In this document: one piece after another, positions 9,092-49,400 of the stretch
Numbering within the stretch: the first letter of the stretch is position 1
How the letters are laid out: each line of letters begins with the position of its first letter
NCBI GenBank assembly: GCA_973895155.1
Contig: OZ316892.1
Coordinates: 15,616,861-15,680,860, forward strand
Length of the DNA stretch: 64,000 bases
Source: Marsupella aquatica
Taxonomy: Eukaryota; Plantae; Marchantiophyta
Reading direction: 5' to 3'
Position numbers and translations under genes: made by a program
The notes under the pieces: model-generated
Seen by the model: the letters and a program-made list of their open reading frames with translations, nothing else
Databases searched by the model: none
Told to the model about the DNA's origin: nothing

Positions 9092-10598
9092 GGGGTAAGG
9101 CCACCGAGATAGGAAACAGGGAAACAGAAATTCTGGTACCAGAAAAACAGATGTTGTTATCACGAATATTTTGTTGTTACCAAGGAAAACTGGTCTTTGG
9201 AACATGATTATTACTTCATTACTTCTAACCAAATAGGTCTCAAATAAGCAATATTTAATGGGTTTCATTTATTTTTTAGAGCTTAGAACCAACTAGCATG
9301 CCCAAAATTGTTGTCTGATCATACGTGAGTATGGAATCATCAACAAACTTCTCGAATATAGTGCCCTAAAAATTCCCGACACACAAACATTGGTGTTTCG
9401 CCCTAAATGCCGTAGGGAAAAACACCAATATGGTAGATCCCACCATAATTCATTTCAAAGTATATGCACACAAGAAGACAAAGAACCATGAATGAAAACC
9501 ACAAACAAAATTAAAGACCACAAACGGATGACTAGCGCCTGGCGCTAGCTAAAATAACAATAAGCAACACACCCAAAAATTGACAATGCATCACTACATA
9601 ATCTTGGAAACCAAACTCTTAAAAAATCATTTCCAGTGGTAAGATATACCATGAAGTAAATGATAATAAGGAAGACTTTCACCCGAGTGCCAGACCCTAA
9701 CATAAAACTATACCGTTGTAACACTACAAAAAACAATATAACTGTTTTGAGTATAGTCCGACAACTATATATTCTTTATAAACCATGAGAATTTTCCCTC
9801 TCCAAGATTAGTCGGACTTTGCCAACTGTGAGGATTGGTTGGCTGGTCAAAGTAGATTCCTCAACGTCTAGTTTGAAAACGGTCTGGAACACCCAGTACA
9901 AATGTTTGCAAGGCATATATGGTTGTCTACAAGAATGTCGACTGTAGAAATCCTCACATGAACATGTTGGGAAAATGCAAATCTGGACAAAGTAACTAAA
10001 TTCCGCGTCCTTAGATTCTTGTGCATCTGTACTTTGAATTGCTTCCTCCATGAGTTCCCAATAGAAACATCCCACTGTCCTTGGACGGACATGGTCTCTT
10101 TTTGTGCAGAATCAAACCTCTTCATGTGACCATGGGTCAGGGTCGATCAAGGAACCGTGTTCTTCCCATTCTGACTTTGAAGACAAATGGTGAGTTCAAG
10201 AAGATTGACCCTCTCTGGAAATAAGTTGACATTGATTTGAAGCTCAAAAACTGATGGTGGAGTAAGAGGACAGTGTCATCCTTGGACTATAGCTACCCCT
10301 GGTCAACAAGATACTTCATCTTAGCTTCCGAAACATTTGTTCCTTTTATAATAGGAAGAACATCAGGGAAAGAGGGCAGGTTTACTACACCGCGATGGGG
10401 ACGGCTCCTAGGCAGAACCAAATCATTTTGGCTATGGGTTCCCCCTGAACATGCATTGTCCTTTGACAACAATGCCGATAACACCATTTGCTGAGGGGAA
10501 CCCAACTTTCTTCACTCTATTCTAGCACTCATCTCTTTTGAAATTACTGCCAAATTATGCATTGCACTACGGACCGCCCCAAAATTTTGATGTCCGAC

Positions 10599-10880
10599 CT
10601 TGGGGATTTCACTTCCACAAAAATGACACATCACGTGCGACGAAGTATAGGGTCAGACATTTTATTGGTTCAAAGGGTAGACTTAAGAATTTTCTGAGAA
10701 GAACAACAGGGTCTTTTAAATCAAATTTTGAGACTTGTAAGAACATAGGATCCTTATAACCAATTTTTTTTGGAATTTTCCAAGAATATTCCAACTTTAT
10801 AGGTTCTTACATTTTAGGGGGTCCAAGGCCTAAAAACGTTGCAGGTGATGGGGAGGCATCCATATAGTGAGACCCCCGAG
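10599..10880. mobile_element. MITE with CT(C/T)GGGG...CCCCCGAG termini and 8-bp TSD
   Basis: Same family as 43417-43750 in opposite orientation. Flanks TGTCCGAC (10591-98) and TGTTTGGC (10881-88) differ only by transitions; removal restores colinearity with the transposase copy near 49745. Confidence 0.75.
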
Positions 10881-11207
10881 TGTTTGGCACAAATGCCATG
10901 CACCTTGCATGACTTCTGTTTCAAGAATTAGATATTCAAGCAATGTTTGTTGAAGCACAATGCGAGCGTTGTGTGGGTATCGCGTTGAACATGTTTGATC
11001 TTGACCCTACGATGTCCTAAAATTGTCACGTTTTGCATCCCTTGAATCATCACTCCCTGGTAGATTGACAACAAAAATGTCATCAGGTTTGTCTTTTGAT
11101 ATGGAAGCAAACATTGTGTGGTTCAGATTTTTAAGCTTGAACGATCTGGTATTCGGCAATGTGATAAGGACTTTATCATGTTGGTGGGAGTCTTGTGGCA
11201 AGATATT

Positions 11208-11593
11208 GGGGTACACATCATCATTAGAATCTCAGCTGAGGAGTTGACATGGGGCCTTCAAACTTCCGCGCATCTCAGCTGGGCAACCTAGGTTGACTCA
11301 ATCTCGGTTGACCTCGCCGAGAAGGGCGTACGGACCAAAAAAAAATCCCCCAAAAAAAACCAATTTTTAATTTTTTTTTAAAACAAAATCGGAAAATTTT
11401 TCCCATCTCAGCTGGCCTTGCCGAGATAGGTGTCAGTACGGTACGGGCGCCTCATGGCAAAAAAAAATTTGAAAAAAAAAAATCCTTCAAATTTTGAAGA
11501 AATCGCAACTTGGCGGCCTCTCTGAGATGAGGTGGCAGCTGATATCAGGTACACTGATGAAAGTGACTGATAACTGATGAGATTACCTATCTC
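11208..11593. mobile_element. 386-bp non-autonomous MULE-like element with 9-bp TSD CAAGATATT
   Basis: Perfect CAAGATATT at 11199-11207 and 11594-11602; removal restores the transposase frame (...NIL|PQDSH, cf. NVLAQDSH at 49432). The end CTGATGAAAGTGACTGATAACTGATGA matches 39513-39539. Confidence 0.85.
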
Positions 11594-14500
11594 CAAGATA
11601 TTCCTAGTTGCAGGTCCTTTCCTCTTGATAGACTTTGTTACAACATCTCCATTTAGAGAAACGCTTCTCTCCAAGTCAAACTCAGCAACATTGGAGAGTA
11701 GCATATTCATCGCATCCTCAAATAGCTTCGGGGAACTTGCCTGATCAGCTGAATGGAAAGCCAATTCCCATATTGTTGGACCTCTCCCTCTATTCAATCC
11801 TTTTCGATTTGTTGTATATGGTGCAACCCTGAGATACAGCTCTATTTTGATCCATTGCACATGCCTCGAAGAGCCCAATTAACCTTTTTTTCATTACCCA
11901 CATTTTCATTCTTGCGTGAACTGACTCTGATCCTAAACATTTTGGAATCCTAGCGCCTTCTTCAACACTTTTGTTCTGGAACGACACAGTACAAAATGTA
12001 GTGAGCATGCGCAAAAGATACTAGCACCAGGCGCTAGACAAAAACTTTGGAAAATCATCAAAATTATTATGTAATCATATGTTTGTCAAAATAAAAGATT
12101 CAAATCAGGTCAGTCGATGAGAATCAATTACATTATTTGGATATTGTGTTCAGGAATTGAATGTTCAGGAATGTCAACAGATACTTGAACTTCTACAAGG
12201 GAGAATGACTTGCATATTACTAGCACTAGCACCAGGTGCTACTACTCACCAAGAAAATAAAATTTCCCCACTGCCTCCAACTCACAACCCACCACAATAT
12301 CCAACACTGAAGCATTCAAAGCTTTCCAGGGAAGCAGTTACCAACTGCCACCATAGGCCAATCTCTGTTGAAAGTCGGTAGGCCTCAACAAATGTTGGTG
12401 CGTTATGTAATTTATCCCATAGCATTTGATGTTTTGCTTGCTTCTCTTCCAACAATGAAACGCTTGGTAAAAATGAAAAGTGTTCGTCCGCTCCCGTCAG
12501 GATTTGGGTGCCCTCCAAAAGAAACATTTTGGACTACTAACCATCCGGCTTGGGCATTGTCTGCCATAAAGCCATGAACAGTTGGGTTATCTAACCCATC
12601 CTCTTTGGATACCTCAATCATTAATCTCCAAGCCTTCTTGAAGGACTCTGTATCTTTAGCTTTTAGCTTGCAAGCGAATATTGTACACAATGCGCGGTAG
12701 TTGTGATCGTAAACGTGTGAGCTGAAAGTCACCCAATCCTTGGTCATTTGTTTCATAACATCGAAGCTTACCCAAGCACCTTCTAGACTCCCACCAGGTT
12801 GCATTTGCCACAAAAGATCCACCCCAACCCATGGCCTTTGGAACTTGTCATCTTGAGGCCTGTCTTCTTGAGACCCCTGACCTGGAAAGATGTACCTCTG
12901 GAGAAAAGGCATGTTGATATTCTTTTGATATTGAACTAGAAAATCCAACTCTCCATGATGACCTTTCTGGTCCTGCCTAACACTCCTGAAAAGAGATGCA
13001 AACTTTTGTGGAGTAGAAACTACCATTAGAGACTGAAAAATTTGTGTTTCTTTGATATCTTGAATATCACCCAAGTTGTCATGTGCACAAAGATTGTACA
13101 AAAGATTTTGTCGCTACATTTTTAATTAAGGCAGGCGTCGAAGATGGATTACCTTCCAATTTTTTTTATGACATCTTCATCCACCTTTTTTGCACTTTGT
13201 GAAAATACCTTACAACAAGGATGGTAGTGCAAAATGTGACTACGAGTATCTGAGTCAAGCAAAACTTGAGGATACATATAAAACAGTCTTGTAGAGCATG
13301 ACTCTACACAAAAAGGAATCTGCTGGCAATAATGACAAACAACTCCACCCTGCTCAATGAACGATCCAACACGGTGTGGCCCTCCAAGTTTAGGGGTACC
13401 TGTCTAGGCCTTTGCATTACTCCTCTTCTTTTGGCGGAAATAGTCACAAGTTTTATTCCTGCACTCAATAAATCCAGTACATGTAACTTTACCAAATTCC
13501 CAGTATTTCTTGGGCTGCACGTTTGCAGTAGTAGGAAAAATTCTAGTCTAGATGTAGCAATCCCTGGAGGGGGATTTCACCGTGACAGCAAACAACAAAC
13601 AACAAAACTCATACCAGCAAATTTGCAACAAAAAATGACACTAAATGAAAACAATATATATACCAAATATCAGTCAAACCCTGAAGTCAAGGTTTTATTT
13701 TGCACCTTACGCAAAGTTTAATTTGTCCAATAACGAGCAGTCTCTTTCAAAAAAAACTTGTTGCGCAAAAAGCAATTTCACATTATATTGGACCTCAAGC
13801 GGCCCTTGACTACATTTATACTAGCACCTGACGCTAGAGGGAAAACATTTTGGCTACAGAATCCCAAGGATTATGATAGACATATCAAAAAGCCTAATCA
13901 ACACCTCTTTGAACTACCGGCTAGAGTAATAGCATCGGGCGCTACCCAATAGGGGATGCCATGAAGTTCTTCTTTTGTGTCGCTCTCCCCAAAGAGAGGT
14001 GAAGAAAACAAGAAAGAACTAAAGACCAGATCCAAAACCACTCGACTCTGAGGCCAATTCAGAACCGCTACTTTCAGATCTATCTGTGGACTCCGCTTCG
14101 TCGTCTACATACTTGGATTTTGCAATGTCATCTATGAAGTGGTTCTGCAAAAACTTCCTATCTGAGCCTCTCCTGAGCCTAAGACCTTTACTCTCCCAAG
14201 TAAGCGTCCTGACTGAATCTGCCTGTTGTGCCGCCTTTTCAGCATAAGAGGGAAGGACAAATGGCTTCTCCAGGGTCTGTACAACGTTCCTAGAGACGTT
14301 CCTTTGAAGTTAAAAATGCCTCCAAAGATTCCACTCTGACCTGACAAGTTGAACTGGAGTTCTTTAGTCAAAGTCGGGAAATTGATGGAACTTTCTAGAC
14401 AAAAGGGAGTAGAGGAGATCTTTGGCAAAAAATATAAAATGAGAGAAAGAAAGCTAAAGATAATTACTCTTCTGACTCTTCACTGTCCTCATCTCTAGAT

Positions 14501-24613: not shown

Positions 24614-24706
24614 TTACTCATATAAATGCGATGGTTAGTACTACGTCCTGAAGTATCCTGCCTAGGTGAATACGCACATGTCTCCCCTCTACGATATGCA
24701 GAGTGG

Positions 24707-28263: not shown

Positions 28264-28364
28264 TCAGAGGAGATAGTAGTGGCGACTTAGAGCGAACGAG
28301 AGAGCTGGGGTCGAAGCTGGCGCGTGGACTGATGGACTGGTGCACTACAAAGGGTTGGCTCCCC

Positions 28365-28371
28365 TTTTATA
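28365..28371 (-). promoter_or_regulatory. TATA box of the 5' LTR (equivalent at 18273-18279)
   Basis: GGTATAAAAGGGG about 360 bp from the LTR start and about 100 nt upstream of the LTR-ORF ATG. Confidence 0.65.
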
Positions 28372-28789
28372 CCTTGAGGGCTTGTCGATCCCCCGACGTC
28401 TCCTCGACGCCCATAGGCTGAACCGCTCACGCTTGTGGTGTATCGGCCACTCCGCCGGTCTGAGTCAGCGCGTGTGAGTGGCCGCTTCCTTAAGTTCGTT
28501 ATACGGACCCGAGGGAGGGGCCCCTCCACGCTCGTAACCTGGGTGTGCGAATAGTGACCCGCCGCCAGTCCGAACCTGAATTCCCCCTTATTGCCTAATG
28601 ATGTCCTACCCATAATGATTACCTAAATACTGTCGTTATGCTAATAATAGCGGCCTAAGACACTCCTAACGCGCGTACTAAGCGCAGTTAGATCGAATCA
28701 CTCATTAACCGCCGTACTGGCGGCGTCACACTACATTAACACTTAGCTCCAGCATTGCTGACTCCAACGCCAAGCTCCCTTATGGTTCA

Positions 28790-29510: not shown

Positions 29511-30300
29511 TTGTGAACTGGTACATGCAACTGTAGCTACCTTTGTGAGTTGTATCCTAGTTTCACTCCTCTCGGCCTCTTAAGGATAAAGTCAGATTGC
29601 ATTGGTGCTAGAGGTTGTTGGGCGGCCAATTTTCTTTTTGCGAGTGGAAGTTGATGGTACCCGCCTTACATGTGTGGGCGGGCTGGTTCAAACCAAAGGG
29701 GAGTACCCCAAGGGGAGGACAATGGGTCCGACAAGTTTGGAGTTAGCTTACCCGCTTGGACTGGCATCCTACTTGGATTAGTGGGACAGGTTGGAATTTC
29801 CTAAGTCTGGAATTATCACAAGAGAAGCCATGTGTCCCAAATCCACAATGGGAATGTTAGTCCCCAGGCCTTTGGCTTTATACATCAGACGTTAAAGTCT
29901 TGGTACCACTTTATGCCAATAATACCGCACTTTCAGGCTTAGAACTTGGGCGGTACATCAGACGTTAAAGTACCTGCACTTTACGCCAAGAATACCGTTC
30001 CGGACAACATGCGTACCATATAACGATCGTAGAATCCGGAGCGTACATATAACAACTGTACCACAAAGAAGGTACCTATTTGCTAGCGGCCGCCAAGAAG
30101 GTACAGATTCTGCACATGTACAAGGTACATATTTGCCAGCAGCCGCCAAGAAGGTACATGCAAACTCTGGGGATGTAGTATATTCTCCAAGATTCCGTCC
30201 GGCCTTGCCTAAAACATTTCTTCTTCTTCCATCGTGTGGCTTATAATCCCCTCTGCAAAAATGCCTGACTTGAAGGATGAATAAATAGCCTTCCGACTTC

Positions 30301-31169
30301 CTACTCGGCAAGGGTCTTTGACATGCGGTCGCCCTATCTAGCGAGCCTCTTTGTGGTGGATTAGGGACTTCCTTGGTCGTTGAGTGTCATTTACTTTTCA
30401 TCCCAAGTCATTCTCGGCGGGGGTCTCCAAGATTCTGAGATGGATTCTCATAGACTTTTATCTAGAATCCTACTCGGCAATGGTCTCTAACATGCGGTCG
30501 CGCTATCTGGCGAGCCTCTCTGTGGTGGATTAGGGACTTCCTTGGTCGCCGAGTGTCATTTACTTCTCATCCCAAGTCATTCTTGGCGGGGGTCTCCGAG
30601 ATTTTGAGATGGATTCTCATAGACTTTTATCTAGAATCCTACTCGGCGAGGGTCTCTGACATGCGGTTGCGCTATCTGGCCAGCCTCTCTGTGGTGGATT
30701 AGGGACTTCCTCGGTCGCTGAGTGTCATTTACTTTTCATCCCAAGTCATTCTCGGCGGGGGTCTCTGAGATTCTAAGATGGATTCTCATAGACTTTTACC
30801 TAGAATCCTACTGGGCGAGGGTCTTTGACATGCGGTCGCGCTATCTGGCAAGCCTCTTTGTGGTGGATTAGGGACTTCCTCGGTCGCTGAGTGTCATTTA
30901 CTTTTCATCCCAAGTCATTCTTGGTGGGGGTCTTCGAGATTCTAAGATGGATTCTCATAGACTTTTACCTAGAATCCTACTCGGCGAGGGTCTCTAACAT
31001 GCGGTTGCGCTATCTGGCGAGCCTCTCTGTGGTGGATTAGGGACTTCCTTGGTCGTTGAGTGTCATTTACTTTTCATCCCAAGTCATTCTTGGCGGGGGT
31101 CTCCGAGATTCTGAGATGGATTCTCATAGACTTTTACCTAGAATCCTACTCGGCGAGAGTCTCTGACAT
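30301..31169. repeat. Tandem array, 169-bp unit x5 plus partial
   Basis: CTACT(C/G)GG starts at 30301, 30470, 30639, 30808, 30977, 31146. Confidence 0.95.
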
Positions 31170-31379
31170 TTAGTTTCCACCCTAAATTATTCTCGGTGGG
31201 GGTCTCTGAGATGGACTCGGGTCATTTGGGCAACAGTATTTGTACTCGGCGAGCCTCTCTAAGATGGTAGATTTGTACGGACACGCGATCCATACAGAAT
31301 TACATCGTAAAAACATTGAAAAGTACTGTACGATCAGTTTTTGCATGCACTTTTGGGTTCATCCTTGTATTTTGGCGAG

Positions 31380-31986
31380 GGTCTCTGACATCGAATGTGG
31401 GATAGAACCAATTTGGGTCCTTCATTTGAAACGGAATACCCTTAATTTCATCTCGGAGAGGGTCTCTGAGAGACATAGTGTATGTTGTAGCTAACCCTTT
31501 GAAACTGTTAACAGGGTCCACAAGTGGTGTCATCTGGCCAAAGTACGCCCACGACTCCATCTCGGAGAGGGTCTCCGAGAGGCTGGGTCTCATTTGGCGA
31601 CCTTTCTGACCTAATATGCGATTTGGGAGAACTGCTCTCTGGCCACTTGGGGCACACGGCTCCATCTCAGAGAGGGTCTCCGAGCGATTGGGTTGCAATC
31701 TCGCTTCCCTTTCCACCCAAGATGCGATTGACAATTTTTGCCGTCTGGCCGTTCGGGCCACACCACTCCATCTCAGAGATGGTCTCTGACATCGGATGTG
31801 GGATAGAACCAATTTGGGTCCTTCCTTTGAAACGGAATACCCTTAATTTCATCTCGAAGAGGGTCTCTGAGAGACACAGTGTATGTTGTAGCTAACCTTT
31901 GAAACTGTTAACAGGGTCCACAAGTGGTGTCATCTGGCCAAAGTACGCCCACGACTCCATCTCAGAGAGGGTCTCCGAGAGGCTGG
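31380..31986. repeat. ~205-bp direct repeat with 401-bp offset
   Basis: 31380-31586 matches 31781-31986. Confidence 0.9.
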
Positions 31987-33105
31987 CAACCTTTTTGACC
32001 CTAGAGGCATACTTTTCTACCGTGAAGTTTGCTAGAGTGTTGGACTTTTTTCTACTTCTCATATTTTACGCTAAACCCTAAACCCTAAACATAATTGGCC
32101 GCCTTTATTAAGTCTCCTCCAACAAACCCTCCTTGATCTTGTTGACTTGTGCTCTTCCCCCTTCTCTTAACCCCAATTTCCTCTTTTAGTTAAGCCACCC
32201 AAATGATAATGCATGTGGGCAACCATTTCCTCTTTGAGTTGATGCACCGAGATGTTGACACATCTCAGTAGGCCTCGGAATAAAATGACAGCGAGGGTCT
32301 CCTACATTTGGACTCATTTGAGTTGTAGGCCGAAGTCCCTAATTGTACCCTAAATGTACCCTAAACTCTCTCGTACTAATGGTGGTCAGTACTCGCGTTA
32401 GCATTGTGTACTTTCTTGTTTGGCCGTTAACATGTACGTATTGAAGTATAGTTAGGATCTCCCATATCTATTGCGTACTTTAGTGTTGTGCAGTACGGGC
32501 GGTATGTTATTCCTTGAAGTGGATGTCATTCCTTCCTCGTCACTCTTCCACGGTGTGACACCTTAGGTTTGGCGCTCGTCTTTATCACTAATCCCCGGAC
32601 CTTCTCACTCTGCCTCACTCTTTTGCGTCCCTTACTCGTTCGCGCTCTAATCCGCGCTCTTCCTCAATCTTTGCATATTGGTCTGTGCAATCTCTCACTT
32701 CTCCGCGCTCACATCCGCGTTGTTCCTACTCTTCTTTAGTCGTCCCACTCACGGTAAACTCTCCTGTGCAACCCTGTTACCGTGTCTACTAGATTGCGTT
32801 GGTGTTTTGAGGCAGTGAGCGTGTGGTAGCTTCTCCGTGAGCGTTTAGGCAACATTTTTTTGTGAGCATTTGCGACAGTGATTTGCCGTGAACGTTGGTG
32901 ATTCTCTCAGGTTTTTCTCTTGGCTCCCCCTTTTTCTTGATATGTCAAATCCATTTGTAGATGAATCAAATGTGTGAGAGGCTGGACCCCGCGTATCCTT
33001 GAAAACTGGCTCTCTCGGCGGGGCTCGCTAAGATATTGTCAGGTTTATAGGTCGTGCTATTGCCGAGTAATAACTCTTTCATTTCTCATGTAATCTAAGG
33101 TCAAA

Positions 33106-36100
33106 ATGCCAAAGAGGAAAGACTCGACTGGAGCTGGACCTGCCGACAGCCAAACTTCTCAGCGGAGTAAGAAACCACGATCCAAGCTCGGGGGGTTAAC
33201 TAAGTGTATATTTTGGGGTACCACGTGCAATCCTAGCCTAATATAAATAGACCTATTTTATAAAGAAAATATTCCAAGATGTTTTGGGTTTTTTATGGAA
33301 ACCACAGATACACAGCCTGGTCCGCAATTGCTTCTGAGTATTCGGATCAATTGCAATACCATCTGTGCGTCAAATTCTCTCTTTTGAACACTGGGAAGGA
33401 CGGATTCAAGAAGGTTGAGCAAGCAATGCACGCTCTCAACTCATAAGTACTCTCATTCGTGTCTTTTTGCAAAATGTGATTACCCGTTTGTGTAAACCTT
33501 GTGTGCCATCTTGGAGAGCCTCTTTGAAATTGCCGCTATGAGTACTATTTGTCATTTTCAGGATAAGTGCAACTGTCGTGAAGACGTCCTGGTTTAATGA
33601 CGCTGATCGGGTTGCAAAGCTATTGAACACTCCATTGGAGGAGTACAGTTCGCTCATGTCAAAGGAGACAATGGAGGCTTTCATGAAGGCCCAAAATCGA
33701 GGACATGGGAAGACTTGGTACTCGAAGAATATGACAAAAGAAGCCGCTGTGTACATCATGTCTTGGTCAAACATTGAAGCGGGACGAATCAATATCTCCA
33801 AGGAGATGGCACAAGACGCAGCTCGTGGGCACCCGTGGAGTGTGAAGAGAACTGAGGAGGAGACGGAGGCAATGATTATTGTTGCATGCAAGGCCTGGGA
33901 CAACAAGTTCCCCAAGCTTGCGGCCTGCGTGAATCCAGCCAATGGAGACCAGTTCATGCCGGTATGTCGGCAGCTGTATCACAAGTTGTCAAAGGACGCC
34001 AAGCAGGGTGTGATGAATGTACAGGTTGGCTTGGACAGGGTCCGCTTGTTTGCTGGGGCTTGGGTAACTACAGAGTGCAGAGTATAGCTATTGAAAGCTC
34101 ATTTTGGAACGGAGGAGGAGAAGAGTATTTATCACCATCCACGTAGCAATGATGATGCTGCAATTAGATCTTGGTTAGCAGTCTGGTCAATGTGGTGTTA
34201 CATTGACCACGTTGGTTGTGTGATTTTGACCGATTTTGCTGCAAAGGCCTACCAAAGACAGATGTACCATGAGTTTTCCGGGATAGAGGAGGAATTTGCA
34301 GAGCTATACAAAAGGCTTTATCGAGCTTATGTGCAAGAGAAATCACTGAAACTAGGCGGGGAAATTTGGATTGACGGAAAGGCCACAATCCTGTTAAAAG
34401 AATTGTGGAAAAAGTGAACAAAGAGGTGTGTGACAAGATTTCTAATCAATCAGGAGAACATGAATGCATCCGTATTGAAAGAGCTGCCATGGGCACTCAC
34501 ATCTTGGATGGAGCCGAAAGGGAGCCTTAACATGTATCCATGTGATGGCCAAATTCCTAATGGCAGAGTAGTCTGCAATTGGGAACGTCAAAACTGCCCA
34601 TGGTATATGGAATACCGTGACTGGAATACTTTTATCGATGACGCTGAGAAGGAGTGTCCAATGAAGCTGAAGGACCAACAGGAGCCTACAAATTACTACG
34701 ATATTACCAAGCTACGACAATTGATAGACTCTATGCCCCAGGCAATAGCGTTGGAGGCCATAATCCCAATGGACCCAACCTATGATGGGAAAAAGGCCCG
34801 AAAGGAAGGAGGCGAGAAGAAGGTCAACAAGGAACAATCCGCCGAGGCCAGTCAGTCAGATTCTATAAGCACTCCAACAAAGACCCCATCAGGTATTACT
34901 CAATTCCTTTCGAATCAGGTGGTGGCTTGCATTGGAAAAAACCTTGGCTGGGTTGGCGAGGCTCGCCGAGATTAAGTGTCCGATCTAGTCCAGATGTCGG
35001 CGAGGCTCTCCGAGATTAAGTGTCTGGTCCAGTCCAGATGTCGGCGAGGCTCTCCGAGATTAAGTGTCTAGTCCAGTCCAGATGTCGGCGAGGCTCTTTG
35101 AGATTAAGTGTCTGGTCCAGTCCAGATGTCGGCGAGGCTCGCCGAGATGAAGTATTAGTTGAGTAATAAGTTGCTTGCATATAATGAACCCGATCTTGGC
35201 GAGCCTCGCCGAGATGTAGTTGCCATCATGAAGCTCATCAATTTGCATCCTATGCAGGTCATGCAGAGATCCAAATGGAACCTGGTTCTATCAAGAGCAA
35301 GGGTGTAGAGCCGGCTACAAGGCCAGCAATTGAGGACGGTCCAGGGGTTTCATAGGGTCCAAGGCACAAGGATAAACAACCAATAGTTGAGTTGGGTCTA
35401 GACGAGGCTCCACTGCAAGAATTTGACTTGCCTCCGCATGAGGCTCCTGAAGTACAAGATGAATTGGCTGACGAGCAACAAGGTGAGGATGATGTGGGTG
35501 AGCGAGAGGAAGAGGAGCAAGAGGAAGAGGACAAAGGACAATCCAAAGATGAAGGGCGCTTGTCCGATATCTCTCTTGTGCCTTACCGGCCACCATTACT
35601 GTCACGGCAAAAGGAAAAGGCCTTAAAAAGAAAGCAAACTAGGCGACCCAGAGCTCCCAAAGGGAGCCCAAGCCAAGCACGTGACAAGGAATTTCCTCCT
35701 CTTCCTTCCCCCACTGAGTCGCCTCCCCCGCCCGGCACTGGAGAGGTTCCGCCCACAACCATCCAACCTGACCCCACATTGGAAAATGAGGAGGATGAAG
35801 AGGCCCTTGGAGAAGAGGATAATACAGAGCTGGAAGGAGTAAGGCGTCCTTATGCCAATACCGTGTCTTCCTAGAGCAGACATATGTATTTTAGGTGGTC
35901 TCCAAATCTATTTACAACTTTTTTTGATGCGGCTAAAGAAGGTACCGAACCCCCTGTAGTTAGTAAATTGATCTCATGGTGCAGAAAGCTATTGTGGGAA
36001 GGTTTGCGTCAAAATGCCTGGAGAAAAGGGGGGAAGCGAGTGAAGACTGGTGCAGATTTAATTCTAATACATATGGGAACAGACACGCGAATGGTCGAGG

Positions 36101-36870
36101 GTAAGTCCACCCCGTTGTGGAATTCATTTCGGGAGGATGACTTGAACCGGGTTCAGGAGTTTGCTCGAGATGTCCTTGATTCCGAAGGACTGTTTGCCAT
36201 CGTGCACAGTGGTTTGCTTCGGCACTCAACTTGCATTTATGATGCATTAGTTTACGAGAATACCAACTGGGGGTTGAAAGAAAGCTTCTTTATCTGGAAC
36301 GACACACCCACCTACGAAGGTAGGACTGGGAAGCGAGTAATTCCCATCAATTACCTACTTCTTCATTTATTTTTTATTCCAATGACTTACTATCCTAAAC
36401 TGAGGAAGTCTGACCTCTAATTGACCTCTAATATCTCAAGCTAGACCTGTGGGGGTTTCAATCTGCTGTGGAGATATGCCCAAAGGACGATGTGGCACCA
36501 ATTAGTGCAGAGCTCGATATGAAGAGTAGGAATGGGCTAACAAACTATACATCCAAGAAGAATCAGGTTAACGATCCTTTTGCGGGCACATTGTTGCCAG
36601 CAACGCTCCAATGTATCATTGAATATACAACACACCTTGGGGCAACTATCCTCACTTTCAACGCACAGTTTGGGGCAATATTCAAGGCGGGTGAAAATTG
36701 CGGGCGGATGGTGTTTGGGACTGAATCCTATCCTCACTTCAGAACTTGTGCGCAAGACCAACTGGCACAACTGGTTGGAGTGATCTCCCCGGAGGAGGAA
36801 GAGGTGGTCCGTTCAAAAGCCAATCCAGAAAAGCACAAGAAGAAAAAGCCGGCAGTACTCCCAACAACAT
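33106..36870 (+). pseudogene. Multi-exon gene: ParB/Srx-like domain, helical region, acidic linker, beta-class N6A/N4C methyltransferase-like fold
   Basis: KMFWVFYGNHRYTAW (33276-33320). ORFs 33578/34091/34430 and 35392/35884 are in frame across single stops, and intron 34893-35257 keeps phase. ADLILIHMG...W...FARDVL..EG.F.I.H (from 36052) and LQCIIEYTTHLGATILTFNAQFGAIFKAGENCGRMVFGTE (36606-36726). Confidence 0.7.
34955..35148. repeat. Intronic tandem array, 44-bp unit x4 plus partial
   Basis: GGCGAGGCTC starts at 34955, 34999, 35043, 35087, 35131. Confidence 0.95.
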
Positions 36871-37095
36871 GTAAGTTTTCTGGCGTTTGATGTTGTTCAT
36901 TTCATATTTGCTTGCTCGTCGCAATGGTTGACAATAGAGGGATACAAGTCAGCGGCCTCGCCGATATGTATGCATGTCGGCTGACCTCGCTGACATTCAT
37001 AGTGTCTGGCCTCCTCTACAAGCGAGGGCAAGTCCTAACTTGAGATGCATGTTGGCGGACCTCGCCAAGATTCATTCCTCTACATGCAACTCAAG

Positions 37096-37893
37096 AAGAG
37101 TCATCTTGGCGGGCCTCTCCAAGATCCGTCTGAGGAAGAGTGATCTCGGCTGGCCTCTCCAAGATCCGTCTCAGGAAGAGTTAATCTCGACTAGCCTCTC
37201 TGAGATCCGTCTCAGGAATAGTCATCTCGGCTGGCCTCTCCGAGATCCGTCTCAAGAAGAGTGATCTTGGCTGGCCTATCCAAGATCCGTCTCAGGAAGA
37301 GTCAATCTCGGCTGGCCTCTCTGAGATCCGTCTCAGGAATAGTCATCTCGGTTGGCCCCTCCGAGATCCGTCTCAGGAAGAGTGATCTTGGCTGGCCTAT
37401 CCAAGATCCATCTCAGGAAGAGTCAATCTCGGTTGGCCTCTCTGAGATCCGTCTCAGGAATAGTCATCTCGGCTAGCCTCTCCCAGATCCGTCTCAGGAA
37501 GAGTGATCTTGGCTGGCCTCTCCAAGATCCGTCTTAGGAAGAGTCAATCTCGGCTGGCCTCTTTGAGATCCGTCTCAGGAAGAGTCAATCTTGGCTGGCC
37601 TCTTTGAGATCCGTCTCAGGAACAGTCATCTCGGCTGGCCTCTCCAAGATCCGTCTCAGGATGAGTCAATCTCGGCTAGCCTCTTTGAGATCCGTCTCAA
37701 GAACAGTCATCTCGGCTAGCCTCTCTGAGATCCATCTCAGGAAGTCATCTCGGCTGGCGTCTCCAAGATCTGTCTCAGGAATAGTCAATCTCGGCTGGCC
37801 TCTCTGAGATCCGTCTCAGGAATAGTCATCTTGGCTGGCCTCTCCGAGATCTGTCTTAGGAAGAGTGATCTCGGCTGGCCTCTCTGAGATCCG
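37096..37893. repeat. Intronic tandem array of ~20 units of 40/41 bp with a 121-bp higher-order period in its first half
   Basis: Unit AA(G/T)AGT(C/G)(A)ATCTCGGCTGGCCTCT(C)CGAGATCCGTCTCAGG; lies between donor 36871 and acceptor 37994. Confidence 0.95.
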
Positions 37894-38385
37894 TCGATCC
37901 ATGTCGACTACCTTCCCCGACAGATGCCTTCTTGTTTACGTCTATTTTGGCGCAATACATTATTTGATTGGATTTAAGTATAACTTAGTAGCAGTTCCCG
38001 ACAGGACTACCGAGTCAGCTACAGCGGAATGGGACAGCCAGGACAGACGGCTTGTCAAGCTCGCGTGGGAGGAAGCTTCGGCATATTTCTCGCCGGAGAA
38101 GTTAACCCTTCCGTGCTACCCTATTGATACCTATCATGAAGAAATAGTGCCTCGCTGTGTAAAAGAGAGAAAAAGGAAAACTCTCAAATTTGTTGATGAT
38201 AGGGCAAAAGAAGCTCAATCAGATGAGAGTAGCTCGGTAGGAAGTGACAATCTCCAAACTCACCATGTAAGTATAAGATTATCAAGCTCCAGTTCCGAAG
38301 AGTAATGTTTGAATGAATTTACCTTCATTGCAGCTCAGGAGAGACCTGAGAAACCAGTGAATGAGGGCTGACTCCCCGAGCAGGA

Positions 38386-39111
38386 GTGAAAGAGGTGGGG
38401 CTTGCAAACAAAGGAGTGCCCGCACAACAACAACCATCCAAATTTTTGGCGATAGTGAAGAAGGCATTGGACCCCAAGGCGGACCAAAAAGAGGTCATAG
38501 TGACAATCGAGGATGTGCACTTGACGAGGGCACATTTAAAATGCTTTCGGCCAAAAAAATGGATCACTTGCGACGTCATCAATGCTTACATTGCTTTACT
38601 GGAACAAAGAGCACAAACCCTTCATAAACCCAAGGCCATGTTATTGCCAACACATTTTTACCAAGTGATGACAACTCCGGAATATAACTTCAACGCAGCG
38701 TTGGCATATTGGCGGGGCATTCAAATGTGGGAGCACGAGTACGTTTTAATCCCCGTCTACCGGCCAAAATACTGGGTACTAGTTGTGGTTGATACTGCCT
38801 TGCGGCAACTGCATTTACTTGATCCGCTTGTGCCCAAAGCACAGGATGGCACAGAAGTGTTCAAAGTAGCTCAGTTTCTTTCGGACCTCTCCATCTTGCG
38901 GGGTCGTACCTTGTTATGTCCATTAGAATGGCCACGCATTTACCGAGATAACATTCCAGGTCAAGGGGATGATTACAATTGTGGTGGATATATCATTATC
39001 TACATGGAGCATATTTTTGGAGGCGGCGTACTGAACTTTGACCCTGCACTTATAGACATCATGCGGCAAAAGATTGTTGTGGACCTTGTCTGCCAGACAA
39101 TTACCCTATAG
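38386..39111 (+). CDS. Ulp1/SENP-like (C48) SUMO protease domain, catalytic His apparently changed to Tyr
   Basis: LKCF.P..WITCDVINAYI.LL, THFYQ, YVLIPV....YWVLVVVD, LLDPL, Q..DYNCG.Y. TAC at 38770-72 stands where CAC (HW motif) is expected. Confidence 0.88.
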   Translation: MKEVGLANKGVPAQQQPSKFLAIVKKALDPKADQKEVIVTIEDVHLTRAHLKCFRPKKWITCDVINAYIALLEQRAQTLHKPKAMLLPTHFYQVMTTPEYNFNAALAYWRGIQMWEHEYVLIPVYRPKYWVLVVVDTALRQLHLLDPLVPKAQDGTEVFKVAQFLSDLSILRGRTLLCPLEWPRIYRDNIPGQGDDYNCGGYIIIYMEHIFGGGVLNFDPALIDIMRQKIVVDLVCQTITL

Positions 39112-39552
39112 AGAGGATGGGAGATGGAGACGCAGCCTAGTGGAATTTAGTTCAGAAAATTGAGATAGACAACATCGTTGTAAAGTTCGGTACAAAGCTT
39201 AATAAAAAGTCAGCGAGGGTCCAAACATTCTTAATGTGGCTCCTATTTGATATGCTATGTTGTACACGTTGCTGGGTATGTTTTCATCTTGGCAAGCTCA
39301 GCCGAGATGGAACAACACTCCAAGGATATCTCAGAGAGGGCGCCAAGATGGTTAGAAAGGGCACCAAGATGGTCAGAGAGGCAGCCGACATTACTAATTG
39401 TCCGAACCAAAACAATGTCGGAGTGGACGCCGACATAGGGTTTGATTGTGGGTGTGAATTAAGTCCATGTCGGCGGCGTCGCTGAGTTTCGGGCACAGAC
39501 TGATATTAGTGACTGATGAAAGTCACTGATAACTGATGAAGTTGTGTACCTC

Positions 39553-42500
39553 CTTTCTGGTCAACAAGTGGTGACGGTACTAGAATGCCTGAATTGATAT
39601 CTTCTCACACAAGGATTTCTAGATTGTCAAATTGATAACTTCTCAATCAAATTTAGATAATTACTCATGGAAAGGAAACATTCCATTTCGACTACTGGAA
39701 CAGCAGGAGTTCAATGCTACCTAGAATCCATATGAGTAATTCAAATCAAAATCCAACTTCAAAGTATGATGGTAAAATTTCTAAGTATTAACTTCTCAAC
39801 AAGAGGAGTCTGTAGTTCTACTCACAACAGGTCAAGGCTCAACAGGAGCACCTGAGGAGGAGCTTCTATGCTTCCAACAGAAATTGAGAACTAAAGGAAA
39901 ATGGATCTGTGTTCCTCCTAACATGCACAAAGGAAGGATCCCAAAAGTCACAAAGTGTCATTTCCGGTTTTCGTGGAAGAAAAATTAACTGTCAATCAAA
40001 ATTCAGAAATGAGAACAAAGGAAAATCCGGAAATGGATGTAAGACAAAATCTGGATTTTGATTTCCGGTCCTACTTACTAAATCCGGATTTAGATCCTAG
40101 TCGGATCCGGAAATTCTAACTAACTAACTAAAAGCTACTAATCTACTGAGCATCATCAACTACATCTACTCTAACTGACTCATGTGTAAGATCAATTGGA
40201 CTAGCAGGTTTTAGAGGAGGAGATATAACTAAACTCGCAGTTGCCTCCAAGTCCTTCAAATCAAAAGGTGTTCCATGTGTTGGACTAATAGTTGAAGGTG
40301 ACACTGACGGAAAATGAAACTCAACCTTCTCAAATCCGGGTGGGGTGCCTCCTGCTTCATTTTGATCGCGCATCACCGGATATGTTCCGGATTCCGAAAT
40401 CCGGATTCTGGCAGGGGTCAACATGGACTTCGCATCCGAAATCACTATCTCCATCTGATCAAACGCTCCTGTGATCTTCTTGGCAAAGCGGTTATTGCAC
40501 TCAATAACCTTGACAAGGGTGCCTGGGTTGGCTGTCGCTAAATACTTATCTATCAGGTTGGCTTCCAACAAGCCAAGGGCTGGTACATGAATAGCCTCCT
40601 GAACACTGGTAACTACAGCATTCAGTTATTTCTGGATTTTCAGGTGTTCCTCCAACTTCTTCTGTGCAACATCCAACTGGTCCACCAAAGAGTCAATCTT
40701 CTATCTGTCCTTGAAGGCCTGATCCTCCAAGTCCCAGATCCGCTTCTTAGCCTGACTCTTAATCACCATGTCCAGAGTGGAAACGATGACAATTGGGCTG
40801 CAGTTGAGCATCTCAGCAACCGTCCCAACTAGATCCTCAAGTTGCTTCATTTTTCCGGTCGCACTTTCCATGAAAGTCCGGACATGCTCCAACTCTGCTG
40901 ATGCCGTCCACTTCAAACTAGGGATCACGCCCGGAAGACTTCCTCTACTTTCCGGTCTCCGGATAGGTTTCGGATCTTCAACAGGATCCAGTTCCGGACT
41001 CTGCACAAATCTCTTCTGCGTCCTGAGAGGTCGCACTTCCAGAACCGGTTCTTCTTCTGATTCAGTCCCCTCAGACGGCTGTCGATCCGGATCTCCGAGT
41101 TGAGCCAACATGGCTTGATTCTCATACTCTTCCGCTACTTCATCTGTAAGAATTTGGTCCATCACGTAAATATTGGCTAGATAGCAAGAAAGGGATGTGG
41201 GGGTCTTCAAATGAAGATTTCGGACCTGGTTGGCTATAACTTCCTCCAAAACCTTGGCCCAGGAAATCTTCTTCTCCCCTATGTAAGAAGCAGCAATCGT
41301 ATTTCCAATCCGAATTGTAACTCGTCAAGGCTTGGCAGGGGAAAGAAGTGGTAGCAAAAAGGACAGAATGTCGTAAAACTCCTCATTACAGCACTGGGAC
41401 ACCTTCCAACCGTCCTTCGGATCCACTTCACCATCAAAATAGTTATCCGCAAATTCATTCTTAGAGGTCAGGAAACCTTCTCCCTTCAAAGGCACATCCA
41501 AAAGCAAAGAGATAACTGCCGCGGTCCACTTTTTCGGTTTGGCTTTGATCGAATCCGGAAATTCCAAAGCAAGGGTCGTGCGCTTTCGGACCTCCTTCAC
41601 GAATATTGCACTCTGGTATCCCCATGGCAACTCCATCAACTTTGCACAACCCATGGTCTCAAGGTTCTTTTGTAAACGGTCCTTCCGTGCCAAATCCGTG
41701 GGAATCTTCGGACGCAGTGGCTTTTCATTCACAATCACTGTCCGCTCCTTGGTCGTCCGCTTCGGTAGCGTCCGGATTCCGGATTTGTCCGGGGCAAAAT
41801 CCGGGTCCTTTCTCTTCACCATATTTAGGAGATGGAGAGGAAGAATCCAAATTAAACTCCTTTCACAAAATTCCGGAAATATCAAATCTGGAAATTGAAA
41901 TCAAATCTTCACTTCCCCACTCAATCGAACGATCACCCACTTCCCCCGTAACCAGTTCCTCACGACTAATGCCTCGAATCGGCAGCCTGGTTCGGCTCTA
42001 AGCTCTCCTGTGATTCCTTGCGAAGGATTTCTACAGCAGTTTGGTGGTGTGAGGAATGCTCGGTCTAGCGTGGTCTTAAGAACTCGGTCACCAACTTCCG
42101 GTCTCCGGTCGAACGTCAGACTTATGGTTTTAATATTCATTCTCCCACGCCTTCTCGCATGGCTCAACGGTGTCGTTACTTAAGAGATCCAAAAAAAGGT
42201 GCTATCTGGATATTTCCGGATGCGATATTGCAAAGTAGTTTGTTATGGTCTTTTCCGGTCAAAGTATACTCCGTTAACCACTAAAAGTTGAAAATTTTCA
42301 AATTTTTTTGTACTTTTTAATTTCATTATTTATAACTATGGTATCACATAACTCCCTCCCCAACCGGTGCAGTGCCCTCGCAAACCATCAAGAGGTGGAG
42401 TGATATTTCTTAACCCGAGATCCATTAACTCGAGTTAATAAAACTTTGCCTTGTAAATCCTCCAACTGTAATGAACCATTAGAAAATATCTCCCTTACCT

Positions 42501-46463: not shown

Positions 46464-49400
46464 ATGGCTCACAATATTGTTGTCACAATTCCCATGCCAG
46501 AATCATCTGAAACAAAGCAAGTTTTGGAGGAATATTTGGGAGTGAGATTTGATGTTTCCAAGGAGTCTATTCTTGCAATCTCATTGGTGTGTGTTAGTTC
46601 GGGGGAGACTCCAGTTTTCTACGATGTTGTTTGTGGACAAAGATATTGGACTATGGCTGCCCAGAAGGAATACAAAGTCTTTGTCTTAAGTGCGAGATTT
46701 TGGGACATGTAGTGCTCGTCCTCCCACATTGGGTCAACTCAATGTCATCAAGCTTTTGGAGAGTTCTAGAGATGAGAAGCAAGCCACAACTCCTATTTTA
46801 GGGAAGATTCCGGTTTACCCATTTGAGGTTAAAAAGGAGTGTAATGTTGATCGAGAAAAGATGGTGCCTTTGATTGTGTACCGGCAGAGTGCCATGGATA
46901 CAATCCTGAAATCCAAAGGGCATAGTGAATTATCTCGATTTATAAGGGTATGGCACGCGTGACAGTAAACAGGAAACAGGTTTACTGGTACAAGCAAAAA
47001 ATTTCTTGTTACCAGCAAAAAGTTATTGTTACCAGGAAAAATAACCATGTCAAAATATTTTCTAGAAAGTCTCATTTTCCAAAAAACTTTAAGTTACAAC
47101 ATTTTTTGGCTAGCTTTGGGCGCTAGCAAATAAAATAAATCTTTGAAAAAAAACCTTTTTTTTCCCCAATTTTTTTTTTTTTAAATTAAAAAAAAATTAC
47201 CACTCATTTTCCTATTACCAATTTCTGTTTTCTGTTACTGTTTACTGTTTCCTGTCGTTTGTAAATACCCCGTTTATAAGGGGAAATGATTTTGTTCATC
47301 ACATAGTTCCTAGTCTTCCCACATCGTACAATGGGAATGTGGTTTTTGAGTTACCCCTGGTAGACTGTGTGAATGCAAAAGGGGAACGTTTGAAAGATAT
47401 GGATTGCAGTAAGGATTGTTTTTACTGGACTTGTATTGTGAAAACATCTTCAAATGTTCTCCCAAAGAAAATGTGGGATTTCGAGAAAGTTCAGTGTACT
47501 GGATCGTTGCAATGTCGTAATAATGCTTATCCATGGTGGAAAGACAACAAGTCAAGAAACGATGATGTGTGGGCAAGAACCCCAAAACTTTCAGGCCCAT
47601 TCCAGGTTGGGGAATTGATCTCTGAAGGTGGAGTTTGTCACTATTGCTCTGAACCTTTGATGTGCGTTGAGGCATGCCCTGCTCTAATGTTCTACATGTA
47701 TCCATCTTGCAAAAGTTGATGTAAAGTCTTTGCCCACAGGTCATGACTTGCTGTTCATAAGGGATTTCACAATCATCCCAGTAGACGGGTTTGGTTGAGG
47801 GAGGCAAAAAAGGTAGCCAAGTTGCATTTGGAGAAGGGATTCATTGCAAACCCCATGGCAACCCCAGTTGGGATAAAAAACTTTGCGACTGAGACATTGA
47901 CAAACACATTTTGTGAGGCCTCTGTTGAAGAAATCTCTCTTGAAGAAGAGAAGGAAATTTGGGAGTCCTTGATGGTCGTCGCATCTCCTTAGAAGTTTGC
48001 ATCCATGTTAAGGAGTGTCCGTCAAGATCAGAAGGGGAAAGGGGAACTGGAATTTCTTGTCAGGATGCAAAAGTGTATCCGACTGCCTTTTCTTCAAAGG
48101 TTCTTGCTCCCTGGTCAAGGCTGCCGAGACGAGAGTGCTCATATCTTCAAAATGACCATAAAATGTGACGGGTGTGGTCTGGACTTGCTCCAAAGAATGA
48201 AATCTGGCGGGTCATTAGAGGGCTCATGGGTAAGTTTTGACGTTATGCATCAAAGCATGGCAGATTGGCTTACTTTTAGTGCCCATGTATATGATCATCA
48301 TTACCCGACACTTTGCACAATATTCACTTGTGAGCTAAAGGCCAAAGATGCAAAATCTCTTGAGAGAGCCTGGCGGTTGATGCTTGAGGTTGCCGATGAA
48401 AATGGCTTAAAAGATGTTACAATTTGGGGATTCATGGTGGACAATGCTTAGGCTGGTTGGAATGTTGTTTGAAACGTGTTTTTTGACGGCCTCCTCAACC
48501 CAGAGCAAGAAAGATCAGTTGCCTTCCATTTTTTCCAATCTTTTCATCGTCATTCCTGAGAAGGTGTAAAAGATGGAAAGCACGGAGAGCACAAGGAGAT
48601 GTGGGATCGTCTTTGGAACGTGTCAACTTTCTTGAAAGCATATCAAATCTTGAGGGAAATTGATGACTGGTGGAGGTCCGACAATTGTCACTCCTGAGGA
48701 AAACTTGGATGCTCCAAGGGTAGTTGTCCTGGTGGGTTGTCCGATGGAGACAATGGGGGAACTTCATAAGACTGGTGAGTTATAGTCTATTCTAGGATAC
48801 ATTGGCTAATTAATAGCGTCTGGCGCTACTGAAACATGTATGAAACTGCAAAGTTCTTCATTCCCAATAGTAGTGCCAAGCGCTAGTAAGCCATTTGGAT
48901 TGTGATTGATATTAGGGCTTACACTGTGATAAATTGTACTTTGAATGGAAACATACCCATCAAATATGATATACTAGCGCCTGGCGCTATTGTTAATTCA
49001 CTTTTATTTCCACTAGTGGGGCAATTTGCGATACATACTAAACACTTGCGTACAATGTTTCAGAGCAAGAGTGCCTAAGAAGCTGGTATGATTCCAAACT
49101 ATACTGGATCAAAATCTAGGCATGCTGGAATGAAAGCATGGCAACAGAAAATAAGGTTGGTCTATTTGAAGGATGCAAAATGGACCAAAATAGGGTTGTT
49201 GCTCAAATTGTTGCTTATACTACATACAAAAGGGGATTGAACAGAGGAACTGGCCCAACTATTTTTGAGCTTGCCTTCAGATCGGCGGACCTGGCGGGGT
49301 CACCGCATCTCTTTGAGGAAGCCACCAATCTTCTCCTATCAAATGCTGCAGAGTTTGATTTGGAAAGAAGCGTTCTATTGAATGGGGATGTTGTAACGCG

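Follow-up and report, generated by a model that had tools for sequence, protein, structure and literature searches.

Transposons whose accessory proteins are shown or proposed to act on their own DNA

Few transposons are known to bind their own DNA and protect it from host silencing. The VANC proteins of VANDAL elements recognize family-specific motifs of 8-9 bases (YAGTATTAY, AGTTGTCC) that lie kilobases from the element ends, in introns, intergenic DNA, and terminal DNA, and that have been multiplied in tandem; both binding and demethylation have been shown for VANC (PMC5735166). KIU proteins are Ulp1-fused VANC proteins acting on family motifs (PMC13317346). In red algae, Plavaka transposons carry an accessory gene, PAG3, whose product joins an N-terminal ParB-like domain to a modifying-enzyme domain (Petroll et al., bioRxiv 10.1101/2025.02.11.637652). 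The accessory protein of Sola1-1_Ec32 from Ectocarpus combines a ParB-like domain with an N4C/N6A methyltransferase domain (PMC12477816). ParB sites are palindromic and clustered, and phage ParB domains partner DNA-modifying enzymes (PMC13229309; PMC4738411). Self-binding is already a published concept for the red and brown algal elements (i.e., PAG3 and Sola1-1_Ec32), as a proposal, and a 2011 chapter is cited for green-algal relatives (ref. 50 in PMC12477816).

The window analyzed here (i.e., the whole 64-kb stretch of liverwort DNA) extends this pattern of a ParB-like protein with palindromic arrays to a land plant and adds a fused SUMO protease. A land-plant, Ulp1-fused version with two motifs was not found in the literature searched; the 2011 chapter and supplements may cover green-lineage cases. 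The element concerned, element C, resembles VANDAL elements in its likely Mutator-like host and in its family-specific, noncoding motifs multiplied by tandem repeats, and it resembles KIU in the fusion of Ulp1 to the accessory protein. Its motif, however, is a 23-bp dyad, and its protein has another architecture; PMC5735166 makes no mention of palindromes.

PAG3 and the Ectocarpus protein are likened to the C protein by their described architecture, and of the traits of this type C has the fused modifying-enzyme domain (activity not implied) and inverted-repeat arrays beside the gene. Such tandem arrays also adjoin PAG3, for which self-binding was likewise proposed. PAG3 carries a 2OG-oxygenase and belongs to EnSpm/Plavaka elements of red algae, whereas C has a methyltransferase fold in a MULE-like element of a liverwort; the section on PAG3 describes no Ulp1 domain, intron placement, or between-family motif difference, all of which are present here. 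The Sola1-1_Ec32 protein (about 1100 aa, compared with 1207 aa for Riccia homolog P0090) is encoded on the strand opposite the transposase, like genes B and D of the window. It belongs to a Sola1 element of a brown alga, PMC12477816 mentions no palindromes and, in the passages on this element, no Ulp1, and the catalytic motif is degenerate in the window analyzed here.

Element C and two nonautonomous derivatives

29812..39553, plus strand: element C, a left-truncated, pseudogenized copy of a multicopy DNA transposon family
11208..11593, unstranded: 386-bp nonautonomous derivative of family C, inside transposase gene A of the other family
46947..47271, unstranded: nonautonomous derivative of the comparison family, with ends like those of element A

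The left junction is marked by LTR-retroelement contigs, which depart from the window at 29811/29813. In two runs, C-type contigs carry other sequence before 29812. At the right end, a contig departs at 39552, and positions 39474-39553 match the end of the 386-bp derivative. Element C is likely a broken copy of a multicopy, Mutator-like (MULE-like) DNA transposon, whose own transposase and left end were lost with the missing left part. A target duplication was sought for C itself and not found, as expected for a left-truncated copy. The derivatives have duplications in the 8-11-bp range of the MULE superfamily (PMC6446971): a perfect 9-bp one, CAAGATATT, for the family C derivative (9/9) and a 9-bp one with 8/9 positions alike for the other. 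Each retains the motif and ends of its own family. The 386-bp derivative has C-type ends with two 9-nt-center and two 8-nt-center sites, and the comparison-family derivative has one weak copy of the second palindrome described below (47111; 3 mismatches).

A family-specific 23-bp dyad

30299..31169, unstranded: 169-bp unit in 5.2 tandem copies upstream of the gene, with 11 scored sites
31369..31990, unstranded: 210-bp segment duplicated at a 401-bp offset, with an inner ~105-bp repeat; 7 sites
34950..35153, unstranded: 44-bp unit in 4.5 tandem copies within predicted intron 34893-35257, with 5 sites
37090..37895, unstranded: 40/41-bp unit in 20 tandem copies within predicted intron 36871-37991, with a 121-bp higher-order repeat and 20 sites
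31190..39308: sites that stand alone, ten in all (31190, 31243, 32285, 33012, 33508, 35193, 36974, 37049, 37901, and 39286)
39328..39488, unstranded: three subterminal sites with an 8-nt center (39328, 39415, and 39467)

A 23-column profile built from the arrays identified 55 sites at ≥10 bits in the 64-kb window, 53 of them in element C and two (11301 and 11405) in the 386-bp derivative. The rest of the window contains none, and a Markov null gave 0 sites per 64 kb. As the profile was trained on C, the count of 53 is partly circular; the absence elsewhere in the window is not. The consensus is a 23-bp dyad, about ATCTCGGCGAG-S-CTCKCCGAGAT. An earlier note on this DNA had described it as a 7-9-7 palindrome, and all five sites quoted there are present (30411, 31559, 34994, 37224, and 39286), two of them 1 bp to the left of the quoted place. 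Its 9-nt spacing is borne out: with 7+7 arms and ≤2 mismatches, a spacer of 9 gave 34 matches in the window (32 inside 30301-39490), and each of the 24 other spacers from 0 to 24 gave 0 to 3. Its free N9, however, does not stand. Across 19 context classes, the central bases are G at position 11 (16/19), T at position 14 (18/19), and C at position 15 (17/19), and positions 9 and 15 are complementary in 14/19; the center is constrained and partly symmetric, which rules out a free spacer. The sites with 8-nt centers near the right end were confirmed, and two more occur in the 386-bp derivative.

Tandem Repeats Finder reported arrays of 169, 44, and 40/81/121 bp, the 169-bp unit holding two scored sites. 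It did not report the 205-bp array of the earlier note, and we reject that array: positions 31377-31586 are duplicated at 31778-31986, and the ~105-bp repeat, a triplet, spans 31547-31789. Four unrelated repeat units carry the palindrome, as had been claimed, although 10 of the 53 sites stand alone. Across 20 context classes, the flanks agree at 26.5%, compared with 25.1% for random pairs, and none of the six motif-masked unit pairs beats shuffles (p 0.39-0.995). This lack of relatedness outside the motif excludes descent of the four arrays from one ancestral unit. In family C, local duplication has amplified the palindrome on at least four occasions, in agreement with the repeated amplification of one dyad proposed earlier. 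Stronger conservation of the motif than of its surroundings is not supported inside the arrays (variable non-CpG columns, 12/66 in the motif and 14/143 outside; p 0.11). The CpG columns are the most variable (p 8e-9), indicating that the array copies of C were methylated and decay neutrally.

This decay, together with unit numbers that differ between copies of family C, would suit an origin of the pattern without any protein, in which hairpins or breaks at the palindrome trigger local duplications and short insertions, so that it spreads by mutation bias. We consider that very improbable, given a fixed 9-nt center with asymmetric preferred bases, imperfect arms, single sites with unrelated flanks, a family-exclusive motif, and a second family that shows the same arrangement with a motif of its own.

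All 53 sites of C lie outside predicted exons. None of the 30 sites in the gene span touches a predicted exon; collapsing the arrays leaves 7 independent sites, for which such placement has a probability of ~1e-5 under an exon model that is our own prediction. The intronic position given for two arrays agrees with this model: the 44-bp and 40/41-bp arrays fall in predicted GT..AG introns, and removing these would preserve the reading frame. A single dyad of constant geometry recurs in unrelated contexts, in family C only and outside predicted exons. Sites upstream of a gene and in introns are where enhancers lie, as would be the case if the element exploited a host transcription factor site; this is highly improbable, because the remaining 54 kb of the window, outside family C, lacks the dyad, related families have different dyads, and 23 bp is long for a plant transcription factor site.

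Alternatively, the family transposase (or a regulator derived from it) may bind the dyad, with subterminal and internal sites aiding end pairing or activating cognate copies and the accessory protein doing something else. The 386-bp derivative retains little beyond ends and sites, the 8-nt-center sites cluster at the right end, and the ends are short and degenerate. In addition, AtMu1 transposase alone binds its own ends and hypomethylates cognate copies; that binding, however, is located at the ends (bioRxiv 2026.08.24.746577), whereas most C sites are found in introns and upstream DNA, at distances of 1-9 kb from the right end. A palindrome paired with a ParB-like protein has also been reported with a Plavaka transposase (bioRxiv 2025.02.11.637652), so the pairing appears to travel with the accessory gene. 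We regard binding by the transposase as possible, although unlikely.

Predicted domains of the accessory protein

33106..33442, plus strand: predicted start of the accessory gene, with the GNHR-bearing second half of the ParB-like domain
33562..34892, plus strand: exon for a helical region of ~440 aa, with two in-frame stops in this copy
35895..36870, plus strand: two exons for a domain resembling beta-class N4C/N6A methyltransferases, in which the catalytic and SAM motifs are degenerate
38339..39111, plus strand: Ulp1/C48 SUMO-protease domain, predicted in-frame fusion, with a frameshift and a His-to-Tyr change in this copy

Of predicted introns 1 and 2, the former lacks AG and the latter GT. 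The first half of the ParB-like domain, present in the copies of the other family, was not found in C. The motif order of the N-terminal domain (IP..L.P / E.L..S / G..R) is colinear with ParB_N and the sites are palindromic and clustered, as in bacterial ParB/parS; the C protein differs in an insertion of ~40 aa, with no HTH recognized, no ParA, and a similarity not beyond shuffles (hhalign E 0.015; score 18.5, compared with 18.45 for the best of 60 shuffles). Among accessory-protein homologs, neither Pfam nor PHROG gave a ParB match, the nearest Atlas clusters are DUF3723 (score 0.96), and the domain is poorly modeled in structure prediction. Of the earlier ParB-MTase-like label, the methyltransferase part is borne out by profile and fold, and the ParB-like part is weakly supported.

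A full HMMER search with the helical-region exon gave 83 homologs, the best 76% identical and uninterrupted, and the named ones among the 20 of these 83 that were looked up are from the liverworts Riccia and Calypogeia. Word-based searches with two C exons gave no match. The helical region has no clear fold match (Foldseek best E 2.3; VIA best Z 4.7) and no DNA-binding fold was recognized in it at that best Z; this does not establish a new fold. Neither A9 nor A6 had a significant match when searched as a profile against PDB. Related loci with flanking sequence were absent from viral contigs, phage searches gave no usable match, metagenomes yielded one locus (1053 bp, coding only), and prokaryote genomes yielded 24 isolated single matches without arrays.

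Of 28 homologs, 20 match Pfam N6_N4_Mtase, with a best E of 1.9e-7, and the C exons match that profile (iE 1.3e-10). Motif IV precedes motif I, and a CcrM/M.RsrI-like fold is predicted, with CcrM the best structural match (E 8e-6) of a low-confidence model (pLDDT 44); a C exon compared with M.RsrI gave E 0.81. The consensus catalytic motif of beta-class N4C/N6A methyltransferases is (D/N/S)PP(Y/F/W). At the corresponding position, Riccia has DLPT, DLPS, or DMPS, Calypogeia has SVGT, and C has HMGT; the SAM motif DFAGG is kept in Riccia copies and reads TFNAQFG in C. The fold and the retained Riccia SAM motif would fit an active methyltransferase that writes 6mA or 4mC at or near the dyad, a private mark blocking host 5mC. 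Against this stand the catalytic motif, degenerate in all three lineages, and the altered SAM motif of C, and we hold such an enzyme to be quite unlikely. Modified bases written by the C-type protein are unlikely because of that degeneracy, and the domain is probably a dead enzyme serving as a dimer or DNA-contact module.

The Ulp1 label held: Peptidase_C48 was the only family above the cutoff in Pfam scans of the C frames (E 3.6e-11), and SENP2 matched at E 5e-19. The His-Asp-Cys triad of C48 is present, except that His is replaced by Tyr in the C copy. In most other copies, the Ulp1 frame is open and His is kept (position 38770 encodes His in all other-copy depth in three runs). In the Riccia homologs examined, the protein ends without a Ulp1 domain; the protease is therefore a variable component of the accessory protein.

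A second family with a second palindrome

9779..13576, minus strand: transposase gene A, MULE-like and decayed, with a Cys-rich start, a SWIM-like end, and candidate DDE residues
42770..54532, unstranded: comparison family block with genes B and D and the second palindrome in noncoding parts
42770-44100, minus strand: ParB-like gene B, head to head with transposase B
46479-50600, plus strand: transposase B
51063-51624, minus strand: transposase fragment, head to head with ParB-like gene D
52683-54532, plus strand: ParB-like gene D

The transposase of this family has SWIM matches at E 0.045 and 0.2 and DDE residues assigned by eye, and it has no MULE match in Pfam, NCBIfam, or PDB. As the earlier note had stated, its palindrome differs from that of C: TAGCGCC-N-GGCGCTA occurs at 15 sites, also in the introns and flanks of transposase gene A, and is absent from element C at ≤3 mismatches. 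All 15 sites are noncoding, with coding blocks making up 52% of the span, and 20 simulated spans gave 0 to 1 matches each. Proteins C and D share 27% identity over 347 aa and fall in separate clades (100/100 and 99/97), with a Calypogeia member in each; B and D are 61% identical over 51 aa. The neighboring family thus pairs a distant clade of accessory protein with another dyad, likewise noncoding, a pattern compatible with protein-site coevolution, as inferred from two families. These families differ in their ends, and presumably in their transposases, as well as in the accessory protein, so the binder cannot be told from two families, and on this evidence the transposase is an equally matched candidate.

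Proposed role of the accessory protein

Some element-encoded protein probably binds the C palindrome. That this binder is the accessory protein, acting against silencing at family-specific sites, is the reading we prefer, at about even odds. Counting against it are the weak ParB similarity, the lack of a recognized DNA-binding fold, the neutral decay of the motif inside arrays, and the Riccia homologs that end before any Ulp1 domain; family-specific binding is supported by the dyad geometry, its exclusivity, the unrelated flanks, and derivatives that keep their own motif. A dimer of the accessory protein, through its N-terminal ParB-like domain and helical region, would bind the dyad, and more sites would recruit more protein, so that site-carrying duplications would be retained. 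The fused Ulp1 domain could strip SUMO from nearby silencing proteins, or the bound protein could exclude methylation. Family C would thus stay transcribable, and short nonautonomous derivatives would also be served.

A more far-reaching and doubtful version is a eukaryotic ParB/parS-like system in which a family-specific dimer loads at palindromes and spreads as a nucleotide-gated clamp, the SUMO protease dismantles element-wide silencing, and protein and palindrome codiverge in bryophyte Mutator-like transposons. If true, this would add a third independently built system to the anti-silencing systems of land plants, of which VANC and TnpA are the other two, and would offer a programmable tool against silencing. 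The two families, with distinct palindromes and their own short derivatives, allow a direct comparison of cross-binding specificity.

Liverwort homologs are mislabeled by automatic annotation (e.g., "trimethylguanosine synthase"), and a system of the proposed kind would account for many such proteins.

Palindromic sites in element C

The palindrome repeats of element C, a left-truncated, pseudogenised DNA transposon copy (29812..39553, plus strand), are a genuine feature of this element, and all of the sites quoted in the earlier note were confirmed in the window sequence. When up to 2 mismatches were allowed in the 7+7 arms, a spacer of 9 nt gave 34 matches in the window, including 32 inside the flagged range 30301..39490, compared with 0 to 3 matches for each of 24 other spacers. 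The reported variants with an 8-nt centre were also recovered (five sites, placed near the ends). The freely variable N9 centre described earlier was contradicted: positions 9, 11, 14 and 15 are G, G, T and C in 14, 16, 18 and 17 of 19 context classes, respectively, and the inner base pairs are complementary in 7 to 14 of the 19. With its centre constrained and partly complementary, the site is therefore a 23-bp dyad, about ATCTCGGCGAG-S-CTCKCCGAGAT. A 23-column profile trained on C itself, with the arrays given equal weight, was used to scan the whole window and matched 53 sites in C and 2 in a short insert at 11.3 to 11.4 kb; the rest of the window DNA contained 0 profile sites, and a Markov null at the same threshold gave 0 sites per 64 kb. 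Ten lone sites in C lie outside the arrays.

Repeat arrays of element C (Tandem Repeats Finder)
169-bp array, 5.2 copies
44-bp array, 4.5 copies
40/41-bp array, 20 copies

The previously described "205-bp array" is really a 210-bp segment recurring at a 401-bp offset, with an inner ~105-bp repeat. The claim that the repeat units lack kinship outside the motif stood, as the 17 nt to either side of the motif agree at 26.5%, versus 25.1% for random pairs. Descent of the arrays from one ancestral unit was ruled out (0 of 6 motif-masked unit pairs beat shuffles), and spread of the palindrome by mutation bias appears very improbable. Contig joints suggest that array length differs between copies of the C family, some of these joints perhaps being mis-joins at motif copies.

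Ends and copy number

Contigs were compared from public runs (6 runs, 4 studies and 3 organism labels; the best run is possibly the window's own sample). All 30 bins of 28.5 to 41 kb were covered by contigs in three of four runs compared. Several variant contigs were found at each place in the C region, and C is therefore a multi-copy family; depth itself gives no copy number. One contig departs from the window at 39552, fitting an end of C at 39553, and this end resembles that of the 386-bp non-autonomous derivative at 11208-11593 (score of 76 versus 17 in shuffles). The derivative has a perfect 9-bp target duplication, within the 8 to 11 bp reported for Mutator-like elements (PMC6446971). 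At the left junction, the sequences of C and of a retroelement fragment both break off at 29811/29812; thus, the left part of C has been lost, probably together with its transposase.

Accessory gene of element C

The gene model comprises eight predicted exons (33106 to 39111) and seven introns, five being GT..AG and two damaged. Two arrays had been placed in introns, and the predicted junctions around both do preserve the reading frame. None of the 30 sites in the gene span overlaps a predicted exon (chance of about 1e-5 with the arrays collapsed to 7 independent sites). Judging from its sequence, this gene copy is dead: it carries two stops and a frameshift ahead of Ulp1, Ulp1 itself has a His-to-Tyr change that is absent from other copies, and the opening half of the N-terminal domain was not found in C. 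In the stretches 32071-32092 and 30190-30270 there are AAACCCT telomere-like repeats, located upstream of the gene, and a minus-strand TATA-like box with an ATG near 30240, which may be the start of the lost left-hand gene.

A HMMER search of 1.84 billion proteins identified 83 homologs of the helical exon, the best being 76% identical with an open frame; the named homologs among 20 looked up are annotated as hypothetical proteins and come from Riccia sorocarpa and Calypogeia fissa, which makes a bryophyte-type plant the likely host of the element. A 1207-aa Riccia protein has, in order, a WDGNHR domain, the helical region and the methyltransferase. The methyltransferase-like label was upheld as beta-class (Pfam match in 20 of 28 homologs), and the best fold match of a weak structural model is CcrM. 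This domain is probably a dead enzyme, because its catalytic motif reads DLPT, DLPS or DMPS in Riccia and HMGT in C; the same degeneracy makes an active methyltransferase writing 6mA/4mC at the sites improbable. The helical region was modeled with a pLDDT mostly >90 for residues 311-700, and fold searches returned no clear structural match. The ParB label of the N-terminal domain stands as a lead: its motifs run colinear with those of ParB_N, but the E value is 0.015 and the top score among 60 shuffles was equal. The Atlas clusters closest to residues 135-320 of protein P0015 are fungal DUF3723 and one unnamed cnidarian cluster, a hint that DUF3723 may hold the same kind of domain. The assignment of Ulp1 as a C48 protease is firm.

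A second family with a different palindrome

The window also contains a second family, represented by transposase genes A and B and accessory genes B and D. As claimed, this family has a palindrome of its own, TAGCGCC-N-GGCGCTA, with 15 sites (up to 2 mismatches), all non-coding, compared with 0 or 1 site in each of 20 simulations; none occurs in C. The best copies of this palindrome (window 9533-52088) have a CCWGG core, which is probably a coincidence. CCWGG is the Dcm/EcoRII site. The ends of the second family are unrelated to those of C. A 325-bp derivative of the second family is also present and shows a 9-bp duplication. The tail of a further accessory gene (14022-14600, minus strand; profile iE of 0.0035) lies upstream of transposase A and points the same way, whereas genes B and D each stand head-to-head with a transposase gene or fragment. 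The C and D proteins share 27% identity and belong to separate, well supported clades, each including one Calypogeia member (tree of 25 rows; D on a long branch; B omitted as too short). Of the proposed protein-site coevolution, the part that stood is that motif and protein differ together, but there are two families only and their ends differ too. Viral contigs, metagenomes and prokaryote genomes provided no usable flanking DNA of further relatives.

Possible role of the dyad

The dyad is long and of fixed geometry, recurs in otherwise unrelated sequence, stays out of exons, is confined to one family and has been multiplied four times, and is therefore most probably the binding site of an element-encoded dimer; binding by a host factor is the least probable reading considered. 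We give about an even chance that the C accessory protein binds the dyad and would thereby counter silencing of the element, with Ulp1 as the likely effector, as in KIU, an anti-silencing system of Mutator-like elements (PMC13317346). The accessory protein is favoured as binder because the sites lie in introns and upstream, far from the ends, and because inverted-repeat arrays are reported beside a ParB-like accessory gene in elements of another transposase superfamily (bioRxiv 10.1101/2025.02.11.637652). The dyads could instead be transposase sites, which is rather unlikely, as their placement is closer to that of VANC targets (PMC5735166) than to that of transposase end sites (AtMu1; bioRxiv 2026.08.24.746577). 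The reading of the accessory protein as an anti-silencing binder is weakened by the poor ParB match, by arrays that decay neutrally and in a CpG-driven manner in this copy, and by the absence of Ulp1 from the Riccia proteins examined; that no DNA-binding fold was recognised in the accessory protein also counts against it.

This kind of system is already in print as a proposal. PAG3, a red-algal Plavaka accessory gene, was proposed together with tandem inverted repeats (bioRxiv 10.1101/2025.02.11.637652), and Ectocarpus Sola1 carries a gene with ParB-like and N4C/N6A methyltransferase domains (PMC12477816). Our literature searches, with supplements and reference 50 of the Ectocarpus paper outside their scope, found neither a land-plant case nor a Ulp1 fusion of this accessory protein, nor two families with defined, different dyads.

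Other elements and genes in the window

14634-28730, Ty3/Gypsy-type LTR retroelement; ~4-kb LTRs 97% alike; 5-bp target duplication CTACA
28736-29811, second LTR retroelement fragment; very abundant; chromodomain-like frame; cut at 29811 where C starts
40146-41900 and 42391-42772, both minus strand, long frames interrupting gene B; no Pfam match
58363-59454, minus strand, single-exon membrane-protein frame; 364 aa; no Pfam match
61347-62163, inverted pair; ~290 bp, 86% alike

The LTRs of the first retroelement contain long frames of unknown kind, and an LTR piece 67% related to it lies at 62611-63915. An inverted piece related to the second is found at 8762-9092. The frames interrupting gene B are probably another retroelement remnant; one of them has integrase-end similarity. 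By eye, the membrane-protein frame looks like an intact land-plant-type host gene, and the inverted pair is possibly another short transposon.
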